This document shows, piece after piece, positions 4,259-48,026 of a stretch of 64,000 nt of DNA. The notes beneath the pieces were generated by a model, which was not told where the DNA came from, searched no databases, and saw only the letters and a list, made by a program, of their open reading frames with translations. The stretch spans positions 299,785 to 363,784 of the forward strand of contig DOZJ01000002.1 in assembly GCA_003518055.1 (NCBI GenBank), written 5' to 3'. The stretch comes from Candidatus Falkowbacteria bacterium. GTDB taxonomy: Bacteria > Patescibacteriota > Patescibacteriia > UBA11705. The first letter of the stretch is position 1. Each line of letters opens with the position of its first letter. Position numbers and translations under genes: made by a program.

Positions 4259-5470
4259 GTCTAATATCAATATTCAATTTCTACTTTCGTAGATCAACAT
4301 TGTTTTGCGTAAACTGCAACTGTCTAATATCAATATTCAATTTCTACTTTCGTAGATATTTCTCTTCCTGAACCTTGCTCTGTGTCTAATATCAATATTC
4401 AATTTCTACTTTCGTAGATGATTGTTCCACTTCGCCGTCCGGCCAGTCTAATATCAATATTCAATTTCTACTTTCGTAGATATAACTATATAAGTTAAAT
4501 AAATCAGTCTAATATCAATATTCAATTTCTACTTTCGTAGATGCAACGGCGTTCAGACATATATAGAGGTCTAATATCAATATTCAATTTCTACTTTCGT
4601 AGATGCCGACGTAATGGGTGTTAGGTCTATGTCTAATATCAATATTCAATTTCTACTTTCGTAGATGTTGGGTATTCGGATAATACAGCGAGTCTAATAT
4701 CAATATTCAATTTCTACTTTCGTAGATGAAATCCTGAATATGATTCGGCTAAAGTCTAATATCAATATTCAATTTCTACTTTCGTAGATATTCAGCCGTT
4801 GCTTCTCTAACATAGTGTCTAATATCAATATTCAATTTCTACTTTCGTAGATCTTAAGCAGGCTTTTTCAATTGACGCGTCTAATATCAATATTCAATTT
4901 CTACTTTCGTAGATCTCCGGCCCGATAAAATAGCGTCAGGTATAATATCAATATTCAATTTCTACTTTCGTAGATACTTCGTGAAAATCAAATCACCGTG
5001 TGTCTAATATCAATATTCAATTTCTACTTTCGTAGATTCTTGCAAATGCCGAAACGCCAATAATGTCTAATATCAATATTCAATTTCTACTTTCGTAGAT
5101 ATGGGGGAACTTGCGGGCGTGGCTGGTCTAATATCAATATTCAATTTCTACTTTCGTAGATGCTACCAATGGCACAAACCTGTATAGTCTAATATCAATA
5201 TTCAATTTCTACTTTCGTAGATGCAGTCCCAGACCTCCTTTTGATTAAGTCTAATATCAATATTCAATTTCTACTTTCGTAGATCCATCCTCATAACTGG
5301 CGTCATCAGCAGTCTAATATCAATATTCAATTTCTACTTTCGTAGATCAAAATGCCTGTGAATCCACCATAAAGTCTAATATCAATATTCAATTTCTACT
5401 TTCGTAGATATAGAAAACGCCACATCACCTGCGCGTCTAATATCAATATTCAATTTCTACTTTCGTAGAT
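4259..5470 (+). CRISPR. CRISPR array: 20 x 36-bp repeat GTCTAATATCAATATTCAATTTCTACTTTCGTAGAT with 19 spacers of 25-27 nt; repeat 12 (4940-4975) has a C>A variant at its third base
   Basis: Repeat starts counted at 4259, 4322, 4384, 4446, 4507, 4569, 4631, 4692, 4754, 4817, 4879, 4940, 5002, 5065, 5126, 5187, 5249, 5312, 5374 and 5435. The 3' end of the repeat, AATTTCTACTTTCGTAGAT, is the canonical Cas12a crRNA handle (UCUACU-N-GUAGAU stem), oriented for plus-strand transcription. Confidence 0.97.
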
Positions 5471-5535
5471 ATTTCACCTACACTCAAAAATTAACGGCCA
5501 TAAACTCGCCACCGACCACAAAAGGAGTGAACACC

Positions 5536-5814
5536 ATGAGCTTTTACGCGCTTTTCTACTGGGGCTGGATTACCTTGACCGCCGCCATAGCTCTGCTCTA
5601 TGCCGTTAGTCCGTGTATCATGTTGTACAGCGGTCTTGACACCGGTGCTTATCAGATGCGTGAATTTTGGTACATTTTCCTCCCCGGCTGCTTTGGTTCT
5701 GTTATCGCCGTCAGATTTTTTGGTCAATTCTTCGTTCAGATGATGCGGCAGCGCCGCTTCAAACGCAAGCTTGACCGTGATCTCCGGTGTCCCAAGCCGA
5801 TCCGGCCGAGTTGA
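5536..5814 (+). CDS. Small hydrophobic membrane protein (hypothetical)
   Basis: AAGGAG Shine-Dalgarno 8 nt upstream of ATG 5536; two predicted TM helices; basic C-terminus. Confidence 0.5.
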   Translation: MSFYALFYWGWITLTAAIALLYAVSPCIMLYSGLDTGAYQMREFWYIFLPGCFGSVIAVRFFGQFFVQMMRQRRFKRKLDRDLRCPKPIRPS

Positions 5815-5837
5815 GTTTATGAATTATGAAATTTTGC

Positions 5838-5863
5838 TGAAGCACCGCGTGCTTCATTTTTTT
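5838..5863 (+). terminator. Rho-independent terminator (TGAAGCACCGCGTGCTTCA + T7)
   Basis: Perfect 8-bp stem followed by a T-run downstream of ORF 5536..5814. Confidence 0.7.
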
Positions 5864-5894
5864 ATCAAAAAAGATGATTGGTTAATCATCTGTT

Positions 5895-6215
5895 TCAGTT
5901 GAACTTGTCTAACTTCAGCACTTCGATCAACACGATTTTGAGCGCGTGATAAAATCTGGTAGTGATGGCGTCTTCATAATGATATTTGAGTTCAGCGGTT
6001 AGCCGTCTTTCATCTACGGTCATTGTCCACGGCTGATCAGGTCCGATACCCCAACGCAGACCATCATTGAAAATTTTTCTAATCAGCGATCGGCCGAATA
6101 AAACAAGTGAAATTCTAGTGGCGATCTCCTGATAATATTCTGTAATTTTTTCCTGCCCACCAATATCTTTTCGTCGTTTGATTTCAGTCGGGTCAAGGCG
6201 GAACAAGACGCTCAT
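5895..6215 (-). CDS. Hypothetical protein (106 aa)
   Basis: ATG start; preceded on the minus strand by a hairpin and terminator region; no recognisable motif. Confidence 0.45.
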   Translation of the reverse strand: MSVLFRLDPTEIKRRKDIGGQEKITEYYQEIATRISLVLFGRSLIRKIFNDGLRWGIGPDQPWTMTVDERRLTAELKYHYEDAITTRFYHALKIVLIEVLKLDKFN

Positions 6216-17178: not shown

Positions 17179-18555
17179 TCATCCGTTATACCCATGCTGC
17201 TGCCGGTCCATATCTTTGAACGAAGCCTGAGCCCCGTCAAAATAAAGTTTGATCAACCCGGTCGGACCATTACGATGTTTGGCGATGTGAATCTCAGCCG
17301 TGCTTTTGTCTTCCGGCGTTAGCTCCTCGGGCGAGTAGTTGCGGTCAGCGGATTTACGATAGATAAACATCACAATATCCGCGTCCTGCTCGATAGATCC
17401 GGATTCACGGAGGTGGGAGAGTTTGGGGATTGCCGGCTTGTTCATTTCCACCGCGCGGGATAGCTGAGACAGCGCCAAGACCGGAATATCCAATTCACGC
17501 GCGATTTGTTTCAACGCCCGAGAGATTTCTGATACCGCCTGCAGTCGATTTTCTGCTCCGACCCGTGATTCCATCAGCTGTAGATAATCAATCACAATCA
17601 GACCGAGATTATGCTCCATTTTTAGCCGTCTCGCTTTGGTTCTGACATCGATGATGCTGATGCCGGCGGAGTCGTCAATATAAATGGGCGCTTCAGACAA
17701 AACTCCCATCGCGTGACCCAGCCGCGGGAAGTCACTGTCATCTTCGCCCGAAGATAGTTTGCCGGTGCGGATTTTCCACAGGTCGACGCCAGATTCGGCG
17801 CACAGCATGCGGTCAACCAATTGTTCTTTGCTCATTTCCAAACTGAAATACCCGACAGGGACCTTGCTTTTGACCGCCACCTGTCTCGCGATGTCGAGCG
17901 CCAGTGACGTTTTACCGACCGATGGGCGCGCCGCCAAGATTATCAAGTCGGATTTTTGTAATCCGGCTAGGTGATTATCGAGATCAGAAAAGCAGGTGGG
18001 CACGCCGCGCAGCTTGCCGGAATTTTTATGCAGCTCGTCAATTCGTTCAAACGCCGAAGCCAAGACAGATTTGATCGGCATGAATCCTTGTTTTTGATTC
18101 TTTTGCGACACATCAAAGAGCTGGTGTTCGGCTTGATCGATAATGACATCAATATCTTCGTCTTCTTTATAGCCCAAATTGGTGATTTCGTGAGCGGCGG
18201 AAATCAATTTTCTCAACGTGGCTTTTTTAACCACGATTTGCGAGTAGTGGACCACATTGCTGGCGGTGGCCACGCCGTTGGTCAAGTTGACAAGGTAGGT
18301 CCGGCCGCCGATTTGGTCCAGTAATTTTTTTTCTTCCAGTTTGTTGGTTAGAGTCAAGAGATCAATCGGCTCATGTTCGGTATACAATTCCAGCATGTTG
18401 TCATAGATGGTTCTATGACTGGACTTATAAAAGTCTTCCGCTTTCAAGATGTCTGCCATTTTGTAAAAACTTTCATTGTCAATCAAAATCGAGCCGAGCA
18501 CGTACTGCTCAGCTTCAATGTTCTGCGGCGGCAATTTGGTAATGTTGTCAGCCAT
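17179..18555 (-). CDS. dnaB: Replicative DNA helicase DnaB
   Basis: Walker A GARPSVGKTS; H2-H4 motifs; 458 aa. Confidence 0.95.
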   Translation of the reverse strand: MADNITKLPPQNIEAEQYVLGSILIDNESFYKMADILKAEDFYKSSHRTIYDNMLELYTEHEPIDLLTLTNKLEEKKLLDQIGGRTYLVNLTNGVATASNVVHYSQIVVKKATLRKLISAAHEITNLGYKEDEDIDVIIDQAEHQLFDVSQKNQKQGFMPIKSVLASAFERIDELHKNSGKLRGVPTCFSDLDNHLAGLQKSDLIILAARPSVGKTSLALDIARQVAVKSKVPVGYFSLEMSKEQLVDRMLCAESGVDLWKIRTGKLSSGEDDSDFPRLGHAMGVLSEAPIYIDDSAGISIIDVRTKARRLKMEHNLGLIVIDYLQLMESRVGAENRLQAVSEISRALKQIARELDIPVLALSQLSRAVEMNKPAIPKLSHLRESGSIEQDADIVMFIYRKSADRNYSPEELTPEDKSTAEIHIAKHRNGPTGLIKLYFDGAQASFKDMDRQQHGYNG

Positions 18556-18860
18556 AATAATGTTTTCCTCGTGTCAATTTGAGACTCTCGAAGGACTGAC
18601 TCGGGGATGGGCTCAATAGATCAAGTTAATTTTATCTGATATGACCCCCGGCCGCAAGTTGATAACATGGGGAAAAGCGACGGAAAGAGAATTAAGAGAT
18701 TAGGTTAATTCAGAGATAAAGTTGAATGAGAAAATCAGCCGTCTGTGGGATCTTTATTCTGATTTATTATAAACTAATCCTAATCCCTTAATCTCTTAAT
18801 TCTCTCATTCTCTTTTTACCATATTCTAGCCAAACTTCTGTAGTTATAGTTCCGCCCCTA

Positions 18861-18889
18861 TTGACAAATTATTTAATGTGTGTTATAAT
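18861..18889 (+). promoter_or_regulatory. Consensus promoter TTGACA-N17-TATAAT
   Basis: ttgacaaattatttaatgtgtgttataat immediately upstream of the GC-rich non-coding region. Confidence 0.65.
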
Positions 18890-18895
18890 GGTTAA

Positions 18896-19930
18896 TCGAA
18901 CATTGAAAAACACGACACGGGGCTGCGGCCCCAATCACCGGCGGTCCTGAGGGACGCCCGGTCTACTGGAGGACAACTTGAGAGTTTGTTTTGCTCGTGG
19001 TCCCCCGTAGTTATGTCGCGGCACTGGACGGCCCCACAGACCCTTAATGGGCAGTGCGGCGCGTCCGAACTGCGCTGCTCCGTTTCGGCTTAGGGAGCGT
19101 AAAGCAGCCGACCCACGACAGGCCTACCCGGACGTCTAGCACCACCGGCTCTCCACAGCGAGACGGTGCTAAGACGATCGCGGGTTGAACCCAAACCATA
19201 TAACGTCGAAAGTCGGAGGGCAGAAAGCGCATGAATCGTTCTTGACCCCCCCCACTCTCGGCGGCTGCCGTAAGAGAGGGACACTCGGCCGCGGACGCGA
19301 CTCACATGGAGCGGCGGCCGGCCTCCACAGCAGAGGAAAGGCGCTGTAGAAATGATTCATAGCCGAGCTTCGCCGCGGTAGCGCTCCGTTCACGGACCTA
19401 CCGCATCTGTCGTCAGAGTTCTCACGCGTACAATCCTCGTCGCGGAGCATATAGCCCCAGAGCAGGAACGACGCGATTAATCCCCACTCGTGTGGGGAGA
19501 GTGCGCCTGGACCACTACATCCTGTAAACCGAATTTTAAAAAATTCGGTCAAGGCGGGTGAACGGATCCACGCGCGCAAATATACGGTGGGCCCCACCGT
19601 CCTGACGGACAATGTGGGCCTTGGCTGGACTGGTCACCCTGGTGTTCAGCCAAGTATACAGGGGTTTTCTACCTTAAACGGGAAAGTTGAGGGCAGAAAG
19701 CGCATGACGGTGTAATACAAATGATGACCGAGGCCGGACCACTATGGACGGCTCTCGGAGTCTAACATTCACCTGACAGGAAGTCTTAGACCCGGACGCA
19801 AAGCGTTTCGGGTCTTCGTATTTTAAATAACCCCGAAAGTAAAGTTCGTGAACTTCGGTTTCGGATTCTTCGATCTGTGTTTTTCTGGTTTTTTGAACCG
19901 AAAGCGCGACATCAATGTCGCGCTTTCTAA
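18896..19930 (+). ncRNA. Candidate large structured ncRNA (about 1 kb, GC about 58%, unknown class)
   Basis: No plausible ORF in any frame, and GC far above the local background. Contains many stable hairpins, e.g. ACCGAATTTTAAAAAATTCGGT, GGGTTGAACCC and GCTGC...GCAGC. The 18-mer AGGGCAGAAAGCGCATGA occurs twice (19217 and 19690) within similar GAAAGTYGRAGGG contexts. It ends at the palindromic hairpin 19899-19927. Confidence 0.5.
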
Positions 19931-19936
19931 ACTTTG

Positions 19937-20791
19937 TTAGCTATGTTTCTCCGCCAGCTGCAGCGTATTTTTCAATAGATAGGCGATAGTCAGCGGTCCG
20001 ACCCCTCCGGGTACCGGAGAGATAAAGCTGGCCTTGAGCATGGCATTATCAAAATCAACATCGCCGACGGTTTCATCTCCGAGGTCATTGATTCCGACAT
20101 CAATAACAATCGCTTGGTCTTTGATTGACTCATTGGTGATGAATTTCGGTTTTCCGATGGCGACAATTAGGATGTCAGCCTCGTGGCACAGATTATCATA
20201 GTTTGGGGACGTTAGTTTTACCGCCGTAACCACATTGTTTTTTCCGTACAAAAATTGAAATGGCTCAGCAAAGACTTCACTATTACACAAAATGGTGATT
20301 TTTTTATTCTCGATCGTTGTTTTAGTTTCCCGAATCAACGCGTCAATGCCGAGGGCGAGCGGGGAGAGGATTACCGGCTGGCCGGCGCGCAGTTTAACCA
20401 AGTTATCGGGGTGAAAACCATCCACGTCTTTGGCCGGATCAATCGCTTTGATGATGGCCGATTCGTCAAACCCGGCCGGAAGAGGTAATTGAACCAATAT
20501 GGCGTCAACTTCCGGATCCTGATTTAAAAATTTTATTACCTCAATAACTTCCGCTGATGTTTGGTTTTCGCTGAAGCGATATAAATGAAAATCAATCTCC
20601 GCTCGGTCGCAGGCCTTTTGTTTCAAACTGACATAAATCTCTGATGCCTTGTCATGGCCGATCAAAATCGCGGCCAGTCCAGCGCTGGTTTTATTGATTT
20701 TGACAGTCCGGCAGGTCTCTTGATTGATTCTTTCCGCCAAGAGTTTACCGTCGATTATTTGTCCGGTTAATTTTGGGCCTTTAATTTCCAT
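19937..20791 (-). CDS. folD: Bifunctional methylene-THF dehydrogenase/cyclohydrolase FolD
   Basis: 284 aa, FolD fold motifs (PVPGGVGP). Confidence 0.9.
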   Translation of the reverse strand: MEIKGPKLTGQIIDGKLLAERINQETCRTVKINKTSAGLAAILIGHDKASEIYVSLKQKACDRAEIDFHLYRFSENQTSAEVIEVIKFLNQDPEVDAILVQLPLPAGFDESAIIKAIDPAKDVDGFHPDNLVKLRAGQPVILSPLALGIDALIRETKTTIENKKITILCNSEVFAEPFQFLYGKNNVVTAVKLTSPNYDNLCHEADILIVAIGKPKFITNESIKDQAIVIDVGINDLGDETVGDVDFDNAMLKASFISPVPGGVGPLTIAYLLKNTLQLAEKHS

Positions 20792-45681: not shown

Positions 45682-45748
45682 TCTTCTTCACGAAAGTTTT
45701 CGATGAAGTTTGTGCCTTAGGTTTGAGGCGGGGGAACGGGGGCTGTGG

Positions 45749-46432
45749 GCGTCAGGTTCGGATGGCTCGACTCGGCGCCTTGACGAGCAGCGAGATGCCG
45801 GTCGCCTTCCAGAAGAGCCAGTTGATCCCGTAGAGGCTGGTGTAGACCACCGCGATCGCGAAGGCCAGCCCACAGCCGATCACGACCGTGTTCAGTAGGT
45901 GCTTCGGATCGAGGACGGTGCCGGTGATCAGGCCGTTTGCCAGCGAGTTGGCCAAGCCGGCGAGCATGATCAGGTTGAAACGTTCGCGCAGGGTCAGGTC
46001 GCGATCCCGCTCGCAGAAAACGAGCATCAGGACCAACAGCTGAGCGAATGCGAAGAGGAGCAGATAGAACTCGAGACTCGCCGCCGCATGCAGATTTGCG
46101 TACTGAATTGGGGCGAGCATCGCGGCCTCGAACATGACCCACATCCTGGCGAACGCTGGGTCGCAGCCGTACGCGCGGAAGTTGTTGGCGACGTAGACCG
46201 CGCCCTGGAGCAGCATGTAGATCGTGAAGAACACCATGATGGTCTGGAACAGCGGTGACTCGATTTGGAGCGTGGGGAGGTAGGTCGCTGCCCACTCGCT
46301 CATGGACGCGTGGTCCATGAACGGGGGCATCTCGACGATGAACAACCGAAACGCCAGGCTGGCGAGAAACGCCAGCGCGATGTTCACGTACGCCCACCGA
46401 TCCACCTGGAAGAACTTGCGACTTTCGTCCAT
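45749..46432 (-). CDS. GC-rich 6-TM membrane protein A (226 aa from the second ATG), paralogue of 47253..47948
   Basis: GGAGGG Shine-Dalgarno 5 nt upstream of ATG 46432; six hydrophobic helices; shares motifs with protein B (EMPPF.../ELPVYF..., LLQGAVYVANNF/LMFGAVYYANHF). Confidence 0.65.
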
Positions 46433-46500
46433 GATTCCCTCCATGTCAGCGCCTTAGCGCGTGTTCAGTGTACAGTTGACGTTGGACGTTTAGTCCGCGG

Positions 46501-46632
46501 TTACCGACTGCGCCACGGCTGCCCCTGCTCGATGGCCTTGGTTTCGGCTTCGCTCAGGGCGTCGCGGTGCATGTCCATCAGGATGGAGGCGACCACGAAC
46601 AGGTTTCGAACGGCGGCGGCGATGCGCTTCAT
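46501..46632 (-). CDS. 43-aa peptide MKRIAAAVRNLFVVASILMDMHRDALSEAETKAIEQGQPWRSR (not in the ORF track)
   Basis: GGAGA Shine-Dalgarno 8 nt upstream; lies between the module-1 promoter and membrane protein A; GC-rich codons. Confidence 0.45.
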   Translation of the reverse strand: MKRIAAAVRNLFVVASILMDMHRDALSEAETKAIEQGQPWRSR

Positions 46633-46674
46633 TTAGAGTATCTCCTGTCTGGTTGTCGAAGATCTTAATCAACC

Positions 46675-46703
46675 ATTATATCACATTTTTCATAAAAAGT
46701 CAA
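46675..46703 (-). promoter_or_regulatory. Module-1 promoter, perfect TTGACT-N17-TATAAT (minus strand)
   Basis: The reverse complement reads TTGACTTTTTATGAAAAATGTGATATAAT. Confidence 0.7.
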
Positions 46704-46735
46704 TAGTAAGTGGTTTTTTTACTCTTATTTATAAC

Positions 46736-46769
46736 AAAAAAGCCACCTGCTTTGATGCGAGGTTGGCTT
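46736..46769 (-). terminator. Module-2 terminator (minus strand): AAGCCAACCTCGCATCAAAGCAGGTGGCTTTTTT
   Basis: Hairpin + T6 immediately 3' of the lipoprotein gene and just upstream of the module-1 promoter. Confidence 0.6.
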
Positions 46770-46802
46770 GGTCACTAGCGATGTAGTGTTGAGTACCTAT
46801 GT

Positions 46803-47240
46803 TCAGTTCGCGTAGTCGTCGTACTTCGTCAGCCGATCCCACCGACTATAGACAGGGGAGATCAGGTCGCTCGAGAGTGACAGGTTGTGCTCCCGCTCGG
46901 CTCGGTCGAACAGCTGGTGCAGTCGGACTGACACCAGCTGCAGCTCGCCGCTCTGGCGATATTCCGAGCTGTACTTGGGGTTCGGGGAGAGCACATCGTC
47001 GTAGGCGATTCGGAGATCTCGCCACTCCTGCCAGTCTCGGACTTCCGTGTGGATGTCCTCGGTCTCGACCTGACGAATCAGGTCGTTAAGGTTGGTGACG
47101 CAGTCGTCGTAGGCCAGCAGGTACTGCTGAGCCTTGGTCAGACTCCCGCAGCCCGACCCGCCGGTGATGGCGGCCAAGAGCAGGAGCGCGAAGGCGATGA
47201 TGATGGCGATGGATCCGAGCGATGACTTGGGCTTGTTCAC
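46803..47240 (-). CDS. GC-rich putative lipoprotein (145 aa, GTG start)
   Basis: AAGGAGA Shine-Dalgarno 6 nt upstream of GTG; signal peptide ending LAAITGGSGC; begins 12 nt after the protein B stop. Confidence 0.55.
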   Translation of the reverse strand: MNKPKSSLGSIAIIIAFALLLLAAITGGSGCGSLTKAQQYLLAYDDCVTNLNDLIRQVETEDIHTEVRDWQEWRDLRIAYDDVLSPNPKYSSEYRQSGELQLVSVRLHQLFDRAEREHNLSLSSDLISPVYSRWDRLTKYDDYAN

Positions 47241-47252
47241 GCGTTGTCTCCT

Positions 47253-47948
47253 TCAGGCCGCAGCCGTCTTGACCGGGCGCTTGATGAACCAGCATACGAC
47301 GCGCTTGGTGTAGATGATCAGAAGCGACGCAGCCGAGCTGGCCGCGAAGCACACAACCACCGTGGCTGCGCCCCAGGCCAGGAAATTCCAGGCCGCGTTC
47401 GGGCCGGAGATCAGGAAGGCCGCGAAAGCGCCGAGCGCCACGTAGCCGGTGATCAGACTGGCCATGAAGCCGAGCGTCTGCCGCCAGCTGGCGCGAAGCG
47501 TCTTGAAGTGATTGGCGTAGTACACTGCGCCAAACATGAGTGTGTGGAGAGCGGTGAAGAAGATGAAGAGGCTCGTCACCGGCGTCATCGCACTCACAAC
47601 GCAGCAGCCGACCGCAGTGGCAAAGCCGAACACCCCGAGAATCAACGAAAGCCACCACACGCTGTTTTCCCGGTTTTCCCGGACGTCGCGCAGGTGCTGG
47701 ATGCTCATGATGATGAAGGCCGCGACCGAGAGCCAGAGCACGCCTTGGAGCAGGTGGGCTCCGCCGAGGTCGGTCACCATGACCGACATCTGTCCCGACT
47801 GCACCGTCCACCAGTTCTCGATGGTGGGATAGATGTGCTCGGTCGCCGGGTGGTTCACGAAGTACACCGGCAGCTCCAGCCACCCTGATATGATGGCGCC
47901 GAAACCGAAGATGACGTAGAGCAGGATCACGGAGTCGGGTTTCTTCAT
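47253..47948 (-). CDS. GC-rich 6-TM membrane protein B (231 aa), paralogue of protein A
   Basis: GGGAGA Shine-Dalgarno; six TM helices; internal duplication of the GAVY.AN.F motif. Confidence 0.65.
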   Translation of the reverse strand: MKKPDSVILLYVIFGFGAIISGWLELPVYFVNHPATEHIYPTIENWWTVQSGQMSVMVTDLGGAHLLQGVLWLSVAAFIIMSIQHLRDVRENRENSVWWLSLILGVFGFATAVGCCVVSAMTPVTSLFIFFTALHTLMFGAVYYANHFKTLRASWRQTLGFMASLITGYVALGAFAAFLISGPNAAWNFLAWGAATVVVCFAASSAASLLIIYTKRVVCWFIKRPVKTAAA

Positions 47949-48026
47949 TGACTTTCTCCCATGCGCTATTCTCGCGTCATGTTGCTATGTTTCCGTGGTG
48001 AACGTTGTTAAAGATCTTAATCGACA

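Follow-up and report, generated by a model that had tools for sequence, protein, structure and literature searches.

Ribosome arrest peptides described so far are sensors that are tied to a downstream gene, and the length of most of them suffices to fill the exit tunnel of the ribosome. The known examples of the RAPP type are secreted or membrane proteins of 50–300 residues in which the force of translocation relieves the stall and which control a downstream gene in their operon. Fujiwara et al. reported RAPP and RGPP to be the most robust arrest sequences, which are not rescued by EF-P, while RDPP, RSPP, and RPPP are partly permissive and RAGP is the core of SecM (Fujiwara et al. 2025; PMC12992588). 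The Arg residue is irreplaceable, and the ribosome stalls when its P site is occupied by codon three of the motif and its A site by codon four. RGPP is reported to be the strongest variant and the one that is most avoided in proteomes (PMC12992588), and this mode of stalling was demonstrated experimentally for RAPP and RGPP peptides in other bacteria. Here, a region of about 1 kb is described that lies between dnaB and folD in a Candidatus Falkowbacteria bacterium, at positions 18861–19935 of a stretch of 64,000 nucleotides (contig DOZJ01000002.1, positions 299,785 to 363,784; hereafter, the window). Judged from its sequence and from those of its relatives, the most fitting description of the element is that of a fast-evolving RNA without a protein gene that has a strong promoter and is defined by very short open reading frames (mini-ORFs) carrying such arrest cores. 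No similar element was found in full-text searches of the literature on noncoding or structured RNA, covariation, and arrest peptides in the candidate phyla radiation (CPR)/Patescibacteria; one arrest-peptide paper names the Patescibacteria, only in a figure on proteome bias.

On the basis of Pfam domains in the called genes, the region is flanked by dnaB (17179–18555, minus strand) and folD (19937–20791, minus strand), with glyA beyond folD. This bears out the placement proposed in an earlier note on this DNA, which had been made from the letters and a list of ORFs and which had also pointed to a TTGACA-17-TATAAT promoter, a GC-rich composition, and a terminal palindromic hairpin; all three are present. 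The sigma-70 promoter (18861–18889, plus strand) matches the consensus at 12 of 12 positions and has a TG before the -10 sequence, the predicted start of transcription being at about 18896. Two promoters with 12 of 12 matches occur in the 64-kb window, of which only this one has an extended -10. The hairpin (19900–19927, plus strand) has perfect 13-bp arms (19900–19912 and 19915–19927) followed by UAAACUUUGUU, and it is likely the terminator of the RNA. As it sits 9 nt from the stop codon of folD, the converging folD transcript probably shares it. Promoter and hairpin together delimit a putative GC-rich, non-protein-coding transcript of about 1.04 kb (18896–19935, plus strand). Its G+C content is 0.56, rising to 0.60–0.635 in a core from 18900 to 19500, against 0.453 for the whole window. 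This architecture and the tests of coding potential discussed below agree in suggesting that the region is a discrete plus-strand unit, from promoter to terminator, without a protein product.

The feature that relates this RNA to the arrest peptides comes to light once start codons other than ATG are allowed. A Shine-Dalgarno (SD) core GGAGG (18968–18972, plus strand) is followed, after the 5 nt ACAAC, by a TTG start and the mini-ORF TTG AGA GTT TGT TTT GCT CGT GGT CCC CCG TAG (18978–19010, plus strand), which would specify the peptide (M)RVCFARGPP. The peptide is 10 residues long, and the TAG directly follows its RGPP core (18996–19007). On both strands of the 64-kb window, no other SD-led short ORF has a RAPP-like core. 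A GGAGG or AGGAG core precedes about 8 of the 49 predicted window genes, mostly 4–6 nt before the start codon, and the RAPP-like mini-ORFs have the same spacing; most window genes have a weak SD or none, so that strong SDs are unusual in this genome. A weaker, tentative candidate is ATG ATT CAT AGC CGA GCT TCG CCG CGG TAG (MIHSRASPR-stop; 19352–19381, plus strand), in which RASP resembles the RDSP/RAGP class and which has a poor SD (GAGGAAAGG, about 10 nt or more upstream). The region had been called ORF-free. That label is right insofar as a long ORF and codon periodicity are both absent; it misses the very short SD-led ORFs, which are the informative feature of the region.

The DnaB and FolD proteins assign the window to a Candidatus Falkowbacteria genome that stems from groundwater metagenomes. 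The same locus was compared in other CPR and Falkowbacteria genomes (loci with L numbers below). Relatives with a DnaB that is 72–79% identical to that of the window keep the order glyA-folD-gap-dnaB-ybaB-recR. The gap between folD and dnaB measures 522 nt in L107/L111, 849 nt in L022, 999 nt in L112, 1818 nt in L108, 2091 nt in L024, and 2137 nt in L105/L106. No credible gene was found in the gaps of six relatives. Each gap contains one or two near-perfect TTGACA-17-(TG)nTATAAT promoters, always oriented away from dnaB, and equivalents of the window promoter were seen at the same position and in the same orientation in L022, L024 (two), L105, L107, L108 (two), and L112. The DNA after each promoter lacks codon periodicity and ends in a hairpin with a U-tract, the non-coding stretch ranging in length from 0.2 to 1.8 kb. 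The G+C content rises some 10–20 points over the mean of the locus in the window, L022, L024, L105, and L107, and only slightly in L108 and L112. The region thus appears to be the local member of a lineage-specific family that occupies the folD-dnaB gap in at least seven related Candidatus Falkowbacteria genomes. This family is known from a handful of metagenome-derived genomes and from one locus only. Among 80 more distant CPR loci (DnaB at most 69% identical), neither a comparable GC-rich gap upstream of dnaB nor RAPP-like mini-ORFs were present, so that the family is apparently restricted to one Falkowbacteria clade.

Nucleotide homology among the transcript bodies was not detected: k-mer sharing, relaxed blastn, and counts of 6- to 9-mers were all at the level of shuffled sequences, except for the promoter and the T-tracts. 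What is conserved in related genomes is a promoter-led non-coding unit at the same place, and not a body that can be aligned. The mini-ORFs tell a different story. In the relatives they read MIRGPP-stop (L107/L111); MIRAPPVH-stop, MRIRDSPS-stop, and MIRIRDRP-stop (L108); MIRAPPS..., MPRDPP-stop, MRYIRDGP-stop, and MTRSRDSPNNSF-stop (L024); ...NPRDGPNVLM-stop (L105); MTKARPPPL-stop (L022); and MPRAPPRQ... (L112). The cores comprise RAPP three times, RDGP twice, and RGPP, RDPP, and RPPP, in ORFs of 6–30 codons. They sit at the 5' end of the RNA in the window and L107, in the middle in L108, and at the 3' end in L022 and L112. The L024 ORF MTRSRDSPNNSF, preceded by GGAGGTG and 6 nt and starting with ATG, belongs to a separate unit of about 215 nt (5640–5900, minus strand) that lies ahead of the 1.5-kb unit in that gap and has its own consensus promoter and strong terminator. 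Its stop codon is 4 nt before the terminator hairpin, and it is the smallest member of the family.

The frequency of these ORFs was examined in a scan for SD-led ORFs of at most 30 codons on both strands of the window and about 100 CPR loci (1.76 Mb). A RAPP-like core was present in 14 of the 1445 ORFs found; all 14 are located in transcripts of the family, on the promoter strand, and none occurs in the remaining approximately 1.75 Mb of strand sequence from the CPR loci. Nine transcript bodies, together 8.2 kb, contain 12 distinct RAPP-like sites in the forward and none in the reverse direction, and 1000 dinucleotide shuffles of these bodies gave a mean of 0.037 sites and a maximum of 2. All seven genomes have at least one site, where 0.04 would be expected. 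SD-led short ORFs in general number 51 in the forward direction and 5 in the reverse direction of the nine bodies, compared to 16 in the shuffles. The invariant Arg is spelled by five codons (CGT, CGC, CGA, AGA, and AGG), from which it follows that conservation is at the level of the peptide. Other codons in and next to the core vary as well: AGT and TCG are both used for the Ser of RDSP, GCT and GCA for Ala, and ATC, ATT, and ATA for Ile. A peptide of six residues can carry family membership after nucleotide homology has been lost. The proteins encoded at these loci, 225,531 residues in all, contain two instances of RAPP and none of RGPP, in a sample that is too small to test for avoidance in the proteome. 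The family as a whole shares the promoter, a rise in G+C content in most members, the lack of periodicity, and the SD-led mini-ORFs of the RAPP type; its architecture and the enrichment, strand specificity, and peptide-level conservation of the mini-ORFs are seen directly in the genomes compared. According to the earlier note, evidence of a translated ORF would speak against its reading. The outcome is divided: the mini-ORFs, with an arrest motif conserved at the peptide level, provide such evidence in part, and there is no sign of a protein gene.

These counts also bear on the explanation that the region is non-functional or decaying DNA, that is, a hypervariable spacer or a foreign GC-rich remnant behind a strong promoter. 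The extreme turnover of sequence between relatives would suit such DNA, as would the AT-rich gap without the element in the syntenic locus L113 and the presence of at least one other GC-rich island in the genome (45700–47950). That island is, however, ordinary coding DNA with a strong periodicity, and the region shows no residual codon periodicity of the kind that a recent pseudogene would retain. Decay also leaves unexplained why seven species keep, at the same site, a consensus promoter and a non-coding stretch that is in most cases GC-enriched and why RAPP-like mini-ORFs are strand-specific and several hundred-fold more frequent than in shuffles. With no similarity to phages or plasmids either, this explanation is very improbable indeed. 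An origin from a mobile element was rejected on similar grounds, as the region resembles no phage or plasmid record and its motifs had no match in viral contigs.

With ApdA, ApdP, ApcA, and SecM (RAGP), the mini-ORFs share the four-residue core, which comes last or nearly last in the peptide of a small ORF with a ribosome-binding site of its own. As in the RAPP-type peptides, the Arg is invariant; the window has the variant RGPP, and RDPP, RPPP, and R-x-G-P are among the other variants. The differences are in the context. The family ORFs have 6–30 codons, the core often begins at residue 3 (M-I-R-A-P-P), and several ORFs can be present in one RNA. Peptides of 10 residues, as in the window, or of 6–30 residues, as in the relatives, are too short for a signal peptide or a membrane segment. 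A downstream gene that could be regulated was not found, as no ORF with coding periodicity precedes the terminator and the next genes, folD and glyA, are on the opposite strand. The window mini-ORF thus resembles the RAPP type in its core, in the C-terminal position of that core, and in having its own SD, and departs from it in two defining features of context, the regulated downstream gene and the targeting signal; from its sequence, it would not be placed in the ApdA/ApdP/SecM class.

The explanation favored here, with moderate confidence, is that the region is a single transcription unit for a GC-rich RNA of about 1.04 kb that contains no protein gene and would act by loading and stalling ribosomes. 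Transcription would start from the consensus promoter, and a ribosome would initiate on the mini-ORF at 18978 and stall with Arg-Gly-Pro-tRNA in the P site (CCC, 19002–19004) and Pro-tRNA in the A site (CCG, 19005–19007). The parked ribosome would open the local hairpin that sequesters the SD and would shield or remodel the structured RNA downstream. Fold prediction has the mini-ORF enclosed in a hairpin, with pairing between the SD (GGAGGAC) and the Pro codons (GUCCCCC), and a stalled ribosome would, consequently, keep this hairpin open. The members of the family do not generally have such a hairpin at their arrest ORFs, and the explanation is for that reason not built on the pairing. Candidate roles for the RNA are that of a sensor of translation status, that of a ribosome trap, or control of its own stability or termination. 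Further downstream, the roles considered as candidates are a ribosome sensor or trap, a functional RNA that is protected by parked ribosomes, and control of read-through into folD-glyA.

A second feature that could load ribosomes is the repeat within the region. The earlier note had found an 18-mer that occurs twice; the repeat is real, and its exact form is the 19-mer GAGGGCAGAAAGCGCATGA at 19216 and 19689, 473 nt apart. The 20-mer form GGAGGNCAGAAAGCGCATGA has two matches in the window and none in 100 shuffles. Copy 1 of the module (19215–19245, plus strand) consists of GGAGGGCAGAAAGCGC followed by ATG AAT CGT TCT TGA (MNRS-stop) and copy 2 (19688–19715, plus strand) of TGAGGGCAGAAAGCGC followed by ATG ACG GTG TAA (MTV-stop). 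The AUG codons are at 19231 and 19704, and CAGAAAGCGC is a part of the module besides GGAGG and AUG. Two more copies, GGAGGACAGAAAGCGCATGA and GGAGGTCAGAAAGCGCATGA, are present in the closest relative, L110. The 14-mer CAGAAAGCGCAUGA, with GGAGG ahead of it, is thus found four times in two species, in surroundings that have turned over. In all four copies, GGAGG is followed by an invariant spacer of 11 nt, an AUG, and a stop after 3–4 codons (MNRS, MTV, MTL, and MKG), and a base-composition estimate puts the chance probability of early stops in four copies at about 3.5e-4. The module looks like a ribosome-binding module of GGAGG, spacer, AUG, and mini-ORF, and the suggestion that the 18-mer marks the starts of two tandem RNAs was abandoned in favor of this reading. 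Ribosomes may find additional loading sites, with ORFs similar to minigenes, in the 19-mer modules; the modules could instead be the binding site for something else.

The bar minigenes of phage lambda are ORFs of 2–4 codons with a strong SD. The repeat modules resemble them in consisting of GGAGG, a spacer, AUG, 2–3 variable sense codons, and a stop, and in this comparison, it is the initiation region that is conserved and not the peptide. Unlike the lambda minigenes, to which they are likened by sequence alone, the modules have an SD-AUG distance of 11 nt and are chromosomal and syntenic, not phage-borne. A different kind of module was noted in L105, in which the 11-codon SD-led ORFs MTPVQDFVAAD-stop and MMPFFEKVAAD-stop sit in a 58-nt internal repeat (5034–5091 and 5451–5508; the RNA strand is minus) with 84% identity. 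They share the VAAD-stop ending and are distinct from the RAPP-like ORFs. Internal repeats in several relatives center on SD-start modules, which suggests that these RNAs have grown by module duplication.

When representative genomes were searched for the 19-mer, 11 single matches turned up in unrelated bacteria, at least six of which are in ftsZ (L012–L015, L017, and L019). The 19-mer is one encoding of the conserved FtsZ motif (F)EGRKRM, which explains the excess of exact matches. None of the matched sequences is otherwise similar to the region, and as homologues they were dismissed as coincidence.

The abundance of SD-like sequences also fits a sponge that works independently of ribosomes, in which a GGAGG/AGGAG-rich RNA titrates a CsrA-like GGA-binding protein or pairs with RNA. 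GGAGG/AGGAG cores are more frequent on the transcribed than on the other strand in L024 (12 vs. 3), L105 (11 vs. 4), L107 (5 vs. 0), and L108 (12 vs. 1), and the internal repeats of several members center on SD-like sequences. CsrB-type RNAs are variable in length and sequence, as are the RNAs of this family, and the repeated GGA motifs and poor conservation outside the motifs are likewise reminiscent of CsrB and RsmZ. In contrast to those sponges, the motifs lead into start codons and ORFs that are conserved as peptides, and the window member has few GGA cores (2 vs. 1 on the other strand). A sponge would not explain the starts at 4–6 nt, the short ORFs, or an invariant Arg spelled by five codons before Pro-Pro. 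Pairing with the initiation regions of window genes was no better than in a control, and a trans-acting antisense function against these genes was rejected on that basis, the duplex energies at 52 initiation regions being equal to those with reversed sequence. A sponge is, on balance, highly improbable.

Several observations weigh against an RNA that loads and stalls ribosomes. Transcription, translation, and stalling are themselves inferred from the DNA sequence. The GC-rich body, which makes up about 90% of the RNA, is not accounted for; stability, structure, and a lack of translation may be all that is required of it. The length of the nascent chain would be a mere 5–9 residues, whereas characterized arrest peptides are longer and depend in part on their N-terminal context. 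There is no gene between the mini-ORF and the terminator, whereas known arrest ORFs regulate a downstream gene. The window RNA has a single convincing RAPP-like mini-ORF, and this starts with TTG. The scarcity of good SDs among the window genes is a further concern, and in some Parcubacteria, the anti-SD is missing (PMC9297842). An initiation role for the 19-mer modules is uncertain because their SD-AUG distance is 11 nt and that of the SD-bearing window genes mostly 4–6 nt. Lastly, the folD-dnaB gap of the syntenic locus L113 is AT-rich and contains neither the element nor SD-led mini-ORFs.

Whether the region might instead encode a protein was addressed in several ways. No 300-nt window of the region shows 3-base periodicity (signal/noise 0.8–1.0), compared to signal/noise ratios of 10–22 for real genes of the window, including the GC-rich ones. 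A Pfam search with the spurious ORFs of the region gave no matches, and gene callers placed no gene there in any of eight independent assemblies of the organism. The earlier dismissal of the listed ORFs was, therefore, correct. A hidden or decayed protein gene and an alternative genetic code were also rejected, as periodicity and Pfam matches are lacking and each of the six frames contains each of the three stop codons.

An alternative is the large ornate noncoding RNA that was proposed in the earlier note. Such an RNA would act through its fold, and the SD-like sequences and mini-ORFs would be incidental or accessory, for example, as roadblocks against a 5'-exonuclease or Rho. GOLLD, ROOL, OLE, HEARO, and raiA RNAs have a similar kilobase size, a G+C content above that of the genome, their own promoter and terminator, and no protein. 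In most species of the family, the G+C content rises at this locus in an AT-leaning genome. No match to any family in Rfam 15 was obtained at gathering thresholds across the 64-kb window, nor in the loci L020, L022, and L024. At E ≤ 10, a search of 18550–20000 gave only noise, mostly microRNA models on an AT-rich palindrome, and ARAGORN detected no tRNA or transfer-messenger RNA (tmRNA) in the 64-kb window. RNase P, tmRNA, group I and II introns, and the large noncoding RNAs of Rfam were rejected for want of a covariance-model match at the gathering score, and the earlier remark that the region could not be matched convincingly to a known RNA class holds after this check. Unlike for GOLLD, ROOL, OLE, HEARO, and raiA, no sequence or fold common to the relatives could be detected for the family RNAs, and the features that are conserved are translational.

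Folding was assessed in 150-nt windows. The mean z-score on the plus strand is -1.8, with two windows near -3.5, and that of dnaB is 0; for the transcribed strand, z-scores are below zero throughout (-1.4 to -2.5). The description of the region as highly structured is right as to direction and overstated as to degree. Two hairpins can be read from the sequence. GGGGC-UGCG-GCCCC near the 5' end (18919–18932, plus strand) is paired in both the minimum free energy (MFE) and the centroid structures, and its stem was also flagged by the terminator scan, on the opposite strand. CCCCAC-UCGU-GUGGGG (19482–19497, plus strand) has a homologue in L110, a 1.4-kb contig with a FolD that is 74% identical to that of the window and with the 3' 650 nt of the homologous RNA. 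L110 is the only relative with an RNA that can be aligned, and only three parts can be aligned between the window and L110: the terminator, this hairpin, and the repeated motif. The L110 hairpin, CCCCAU-UCUU-GUGGGG, has a C-to-U change that keeps a G.U pair and is located in a 55-nt block with 74% identity; the terminator is a different perfect hairpin at the same place that also starts with GAAAGCG. These pair-preserving changes would be in keeping with a role of the fold. The MFE fold of the window RNA includes a 9-bp pairing of the 5' and 3' ends (GAAAAACAC/GUGUUUUUC). As a feature of the family, such a closing helix was rejected, since duplex energies in five members match those of shuffles (z -1.0 to +1.4). 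The contigs of the organism are 100% identical over the region and offer no within-species variation for covariation.

Ribosomes could serve a structured RNA in yet another way. The 5' stabilizers or STAB-SD elements of Bacillus subtilis hbs and ermC are strong SD sequences, some with a tiny ORF and some lacking one, at which a bound ribosome shields the RNA from 5'-to-3' decay, and such binding is known to protect RNAs from RNase J1 (PMC5737220, PMC3997798). Strong SD sequences, alone or leading a tiny ORF, are also present in the family RNAs; these differ in that the protected molecule would be a non-coding RNA, and not a protein-coding mRNA, and in that the stall would be programmed by a peptide. 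In the end, the lack of an Rfam family, of a conserved closing helix, and of any sequence or motif shared by the bodies at 72–79% DnaB identity, together with lengths that vary from 0.2 to 1.8 kb, argues against an RNA that acts by its fold. The features that are conserved family-wide read as peptide, which a purely structural RNA would leave unexplained. Of the interpretation in the earlier note, the discrete unit without a protein or a known family stands; a large ornate RNA that is defined by a conserved fold is not supported, the z-scores being modest and the bodies not alignable. A purely structural function is accordingly judged unlikely, albeit deserving of some weight.

The mini-ORFs might also be part of a translation-coupled attenuator, in which the position of the ribosome would set the balance between termination and antisense read-through into the folD-glyA operon for one-carbon/formyl-tetrahydrofolate metabolism. 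In every case, the RNA runs toward the 3' end of a converging operon, glyA-folD (folD-HAD in L024), and in the window, the hairpin is 9 nt from the stop codon of folD and is followed by a weak U-tract, UAAACUUUGUU. The attenuator-like geometry is seen in two relatives: the mini-ORF of the small L024 unit stops 4 nt ahead of the terminator hairpin, and the MPRAPP... ORF of L112 reads through it. In having short SD-led ORFs in a structured leader, which in these two cases abut or overlap an intrinsic terminator, the RNAs are like trpL, tnaC, and ermC-type leaders. Unlike in those systems, there is no downstream structural gene, the "leader" is up to 1.8 kb in length with multiple ORFs, and no antiterminator, or other alternative pairing, could be identified. 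The geometry has no counterpart in the window, where about 900 nt separate the RGPP mini-ORF from the terminator downstream of it, and from member to member, the arrest ORF is found at different places in the RNA. An RNA length of 1–1.8 kb would not be explained either, and an attenuator is, therefore, considered quite improbable.

In this family, the strongest arrest cores known are placed three residues past the start codon. A transcript can hold several of them and has no other coding content, and the genomes of these organisms are very small and their ribosomes reduced. If the stalls predicted for the RNA with arrest mini-ORFs are real, they would define the minimal sequence for RAPP-type arrest and would point to a use of stalling that is uncoupled from the regulation of a gene in cis, for example, in ribosome sequestration, RNA protection, or sensing of translation capacity. 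Should the RNA be a dedicated ribosome trap, it would constitute a new category beyond arrest-peptide leaders. A wider conjecture, which is rather doubtful, is that Falkowbacteria and perhaps other ultra-small CPR bacteria use abundant noncoding RNAs to capture ribosomes on arrays of minimal arrest ORFs (M-x-R-A/G-P-P) without protein output, as a programmable trap or a sensor of translation status; RAPP or RGPP would then be able to arrest a ribosome after no more than five or six residues of nascent chain. For practical purposes, a GC-rich island that looks "ORF-free" in a CPR genome should be checked for SD-led mini-ORFs before it is called a structured noncoding RNA.

Some further observations were made in the window and in its relatives. 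The GC-rich island at 45700–47950 (G+C 0.60–0.63) contains three small ORFs on the minus strand of 230, 145, and 231 amino acids, which are membrane- or lipoprotein-like and have no significant Pfam match. They are accompanied by two near-consensus TTGACT-17-TATAAT promoters (48055 and 46703, minus strand) with similar leaders (GATTAAGATCTT), and the island may be a horizontally acquired cassette. In the folD-dnaB gap of L113 (4899–6000), a perfect DnaA box (TTATCCACA) lies beside a -35-like element, TTGACAAAT. The locus L020, which has the closest DnaB relative (87% identical), and also L021 carry a gene of the bAvd/23S-rRNA-IVP family between dnaB and ybaB (2676–3047 in L020). Members of the bAvd family are accessory proteins of diversity-generating retroelements. 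Upstream in L020, folD is replaced by an ORF (3–908) that is transposase-like by eye only, and the contig ends there.

Between the start of dnaB and the promoter of the RNA, the window has an AT-rich inverted repeat (18664–18824) with perfect 17-nt arms (18686–18702 and 18789–18805). On the dnaB-sense strand, it would form a hairpin of about 160 nt with a z-score of -3.4, and it could be a structure in the 5'-untranslated region of dnaB or an operator shared by the divergent promoters. A similar sequence, of the AGAGAATTAAGA type, is located upstream of dnaB in L020. A conserved CAAGTTGATAAYRTG block is found about 100 nt upstream of the dnaB start in the window (18656–18670), L020, L022, L024, L107, and L112 and may be the dnaB promoter or the site of a regulator.

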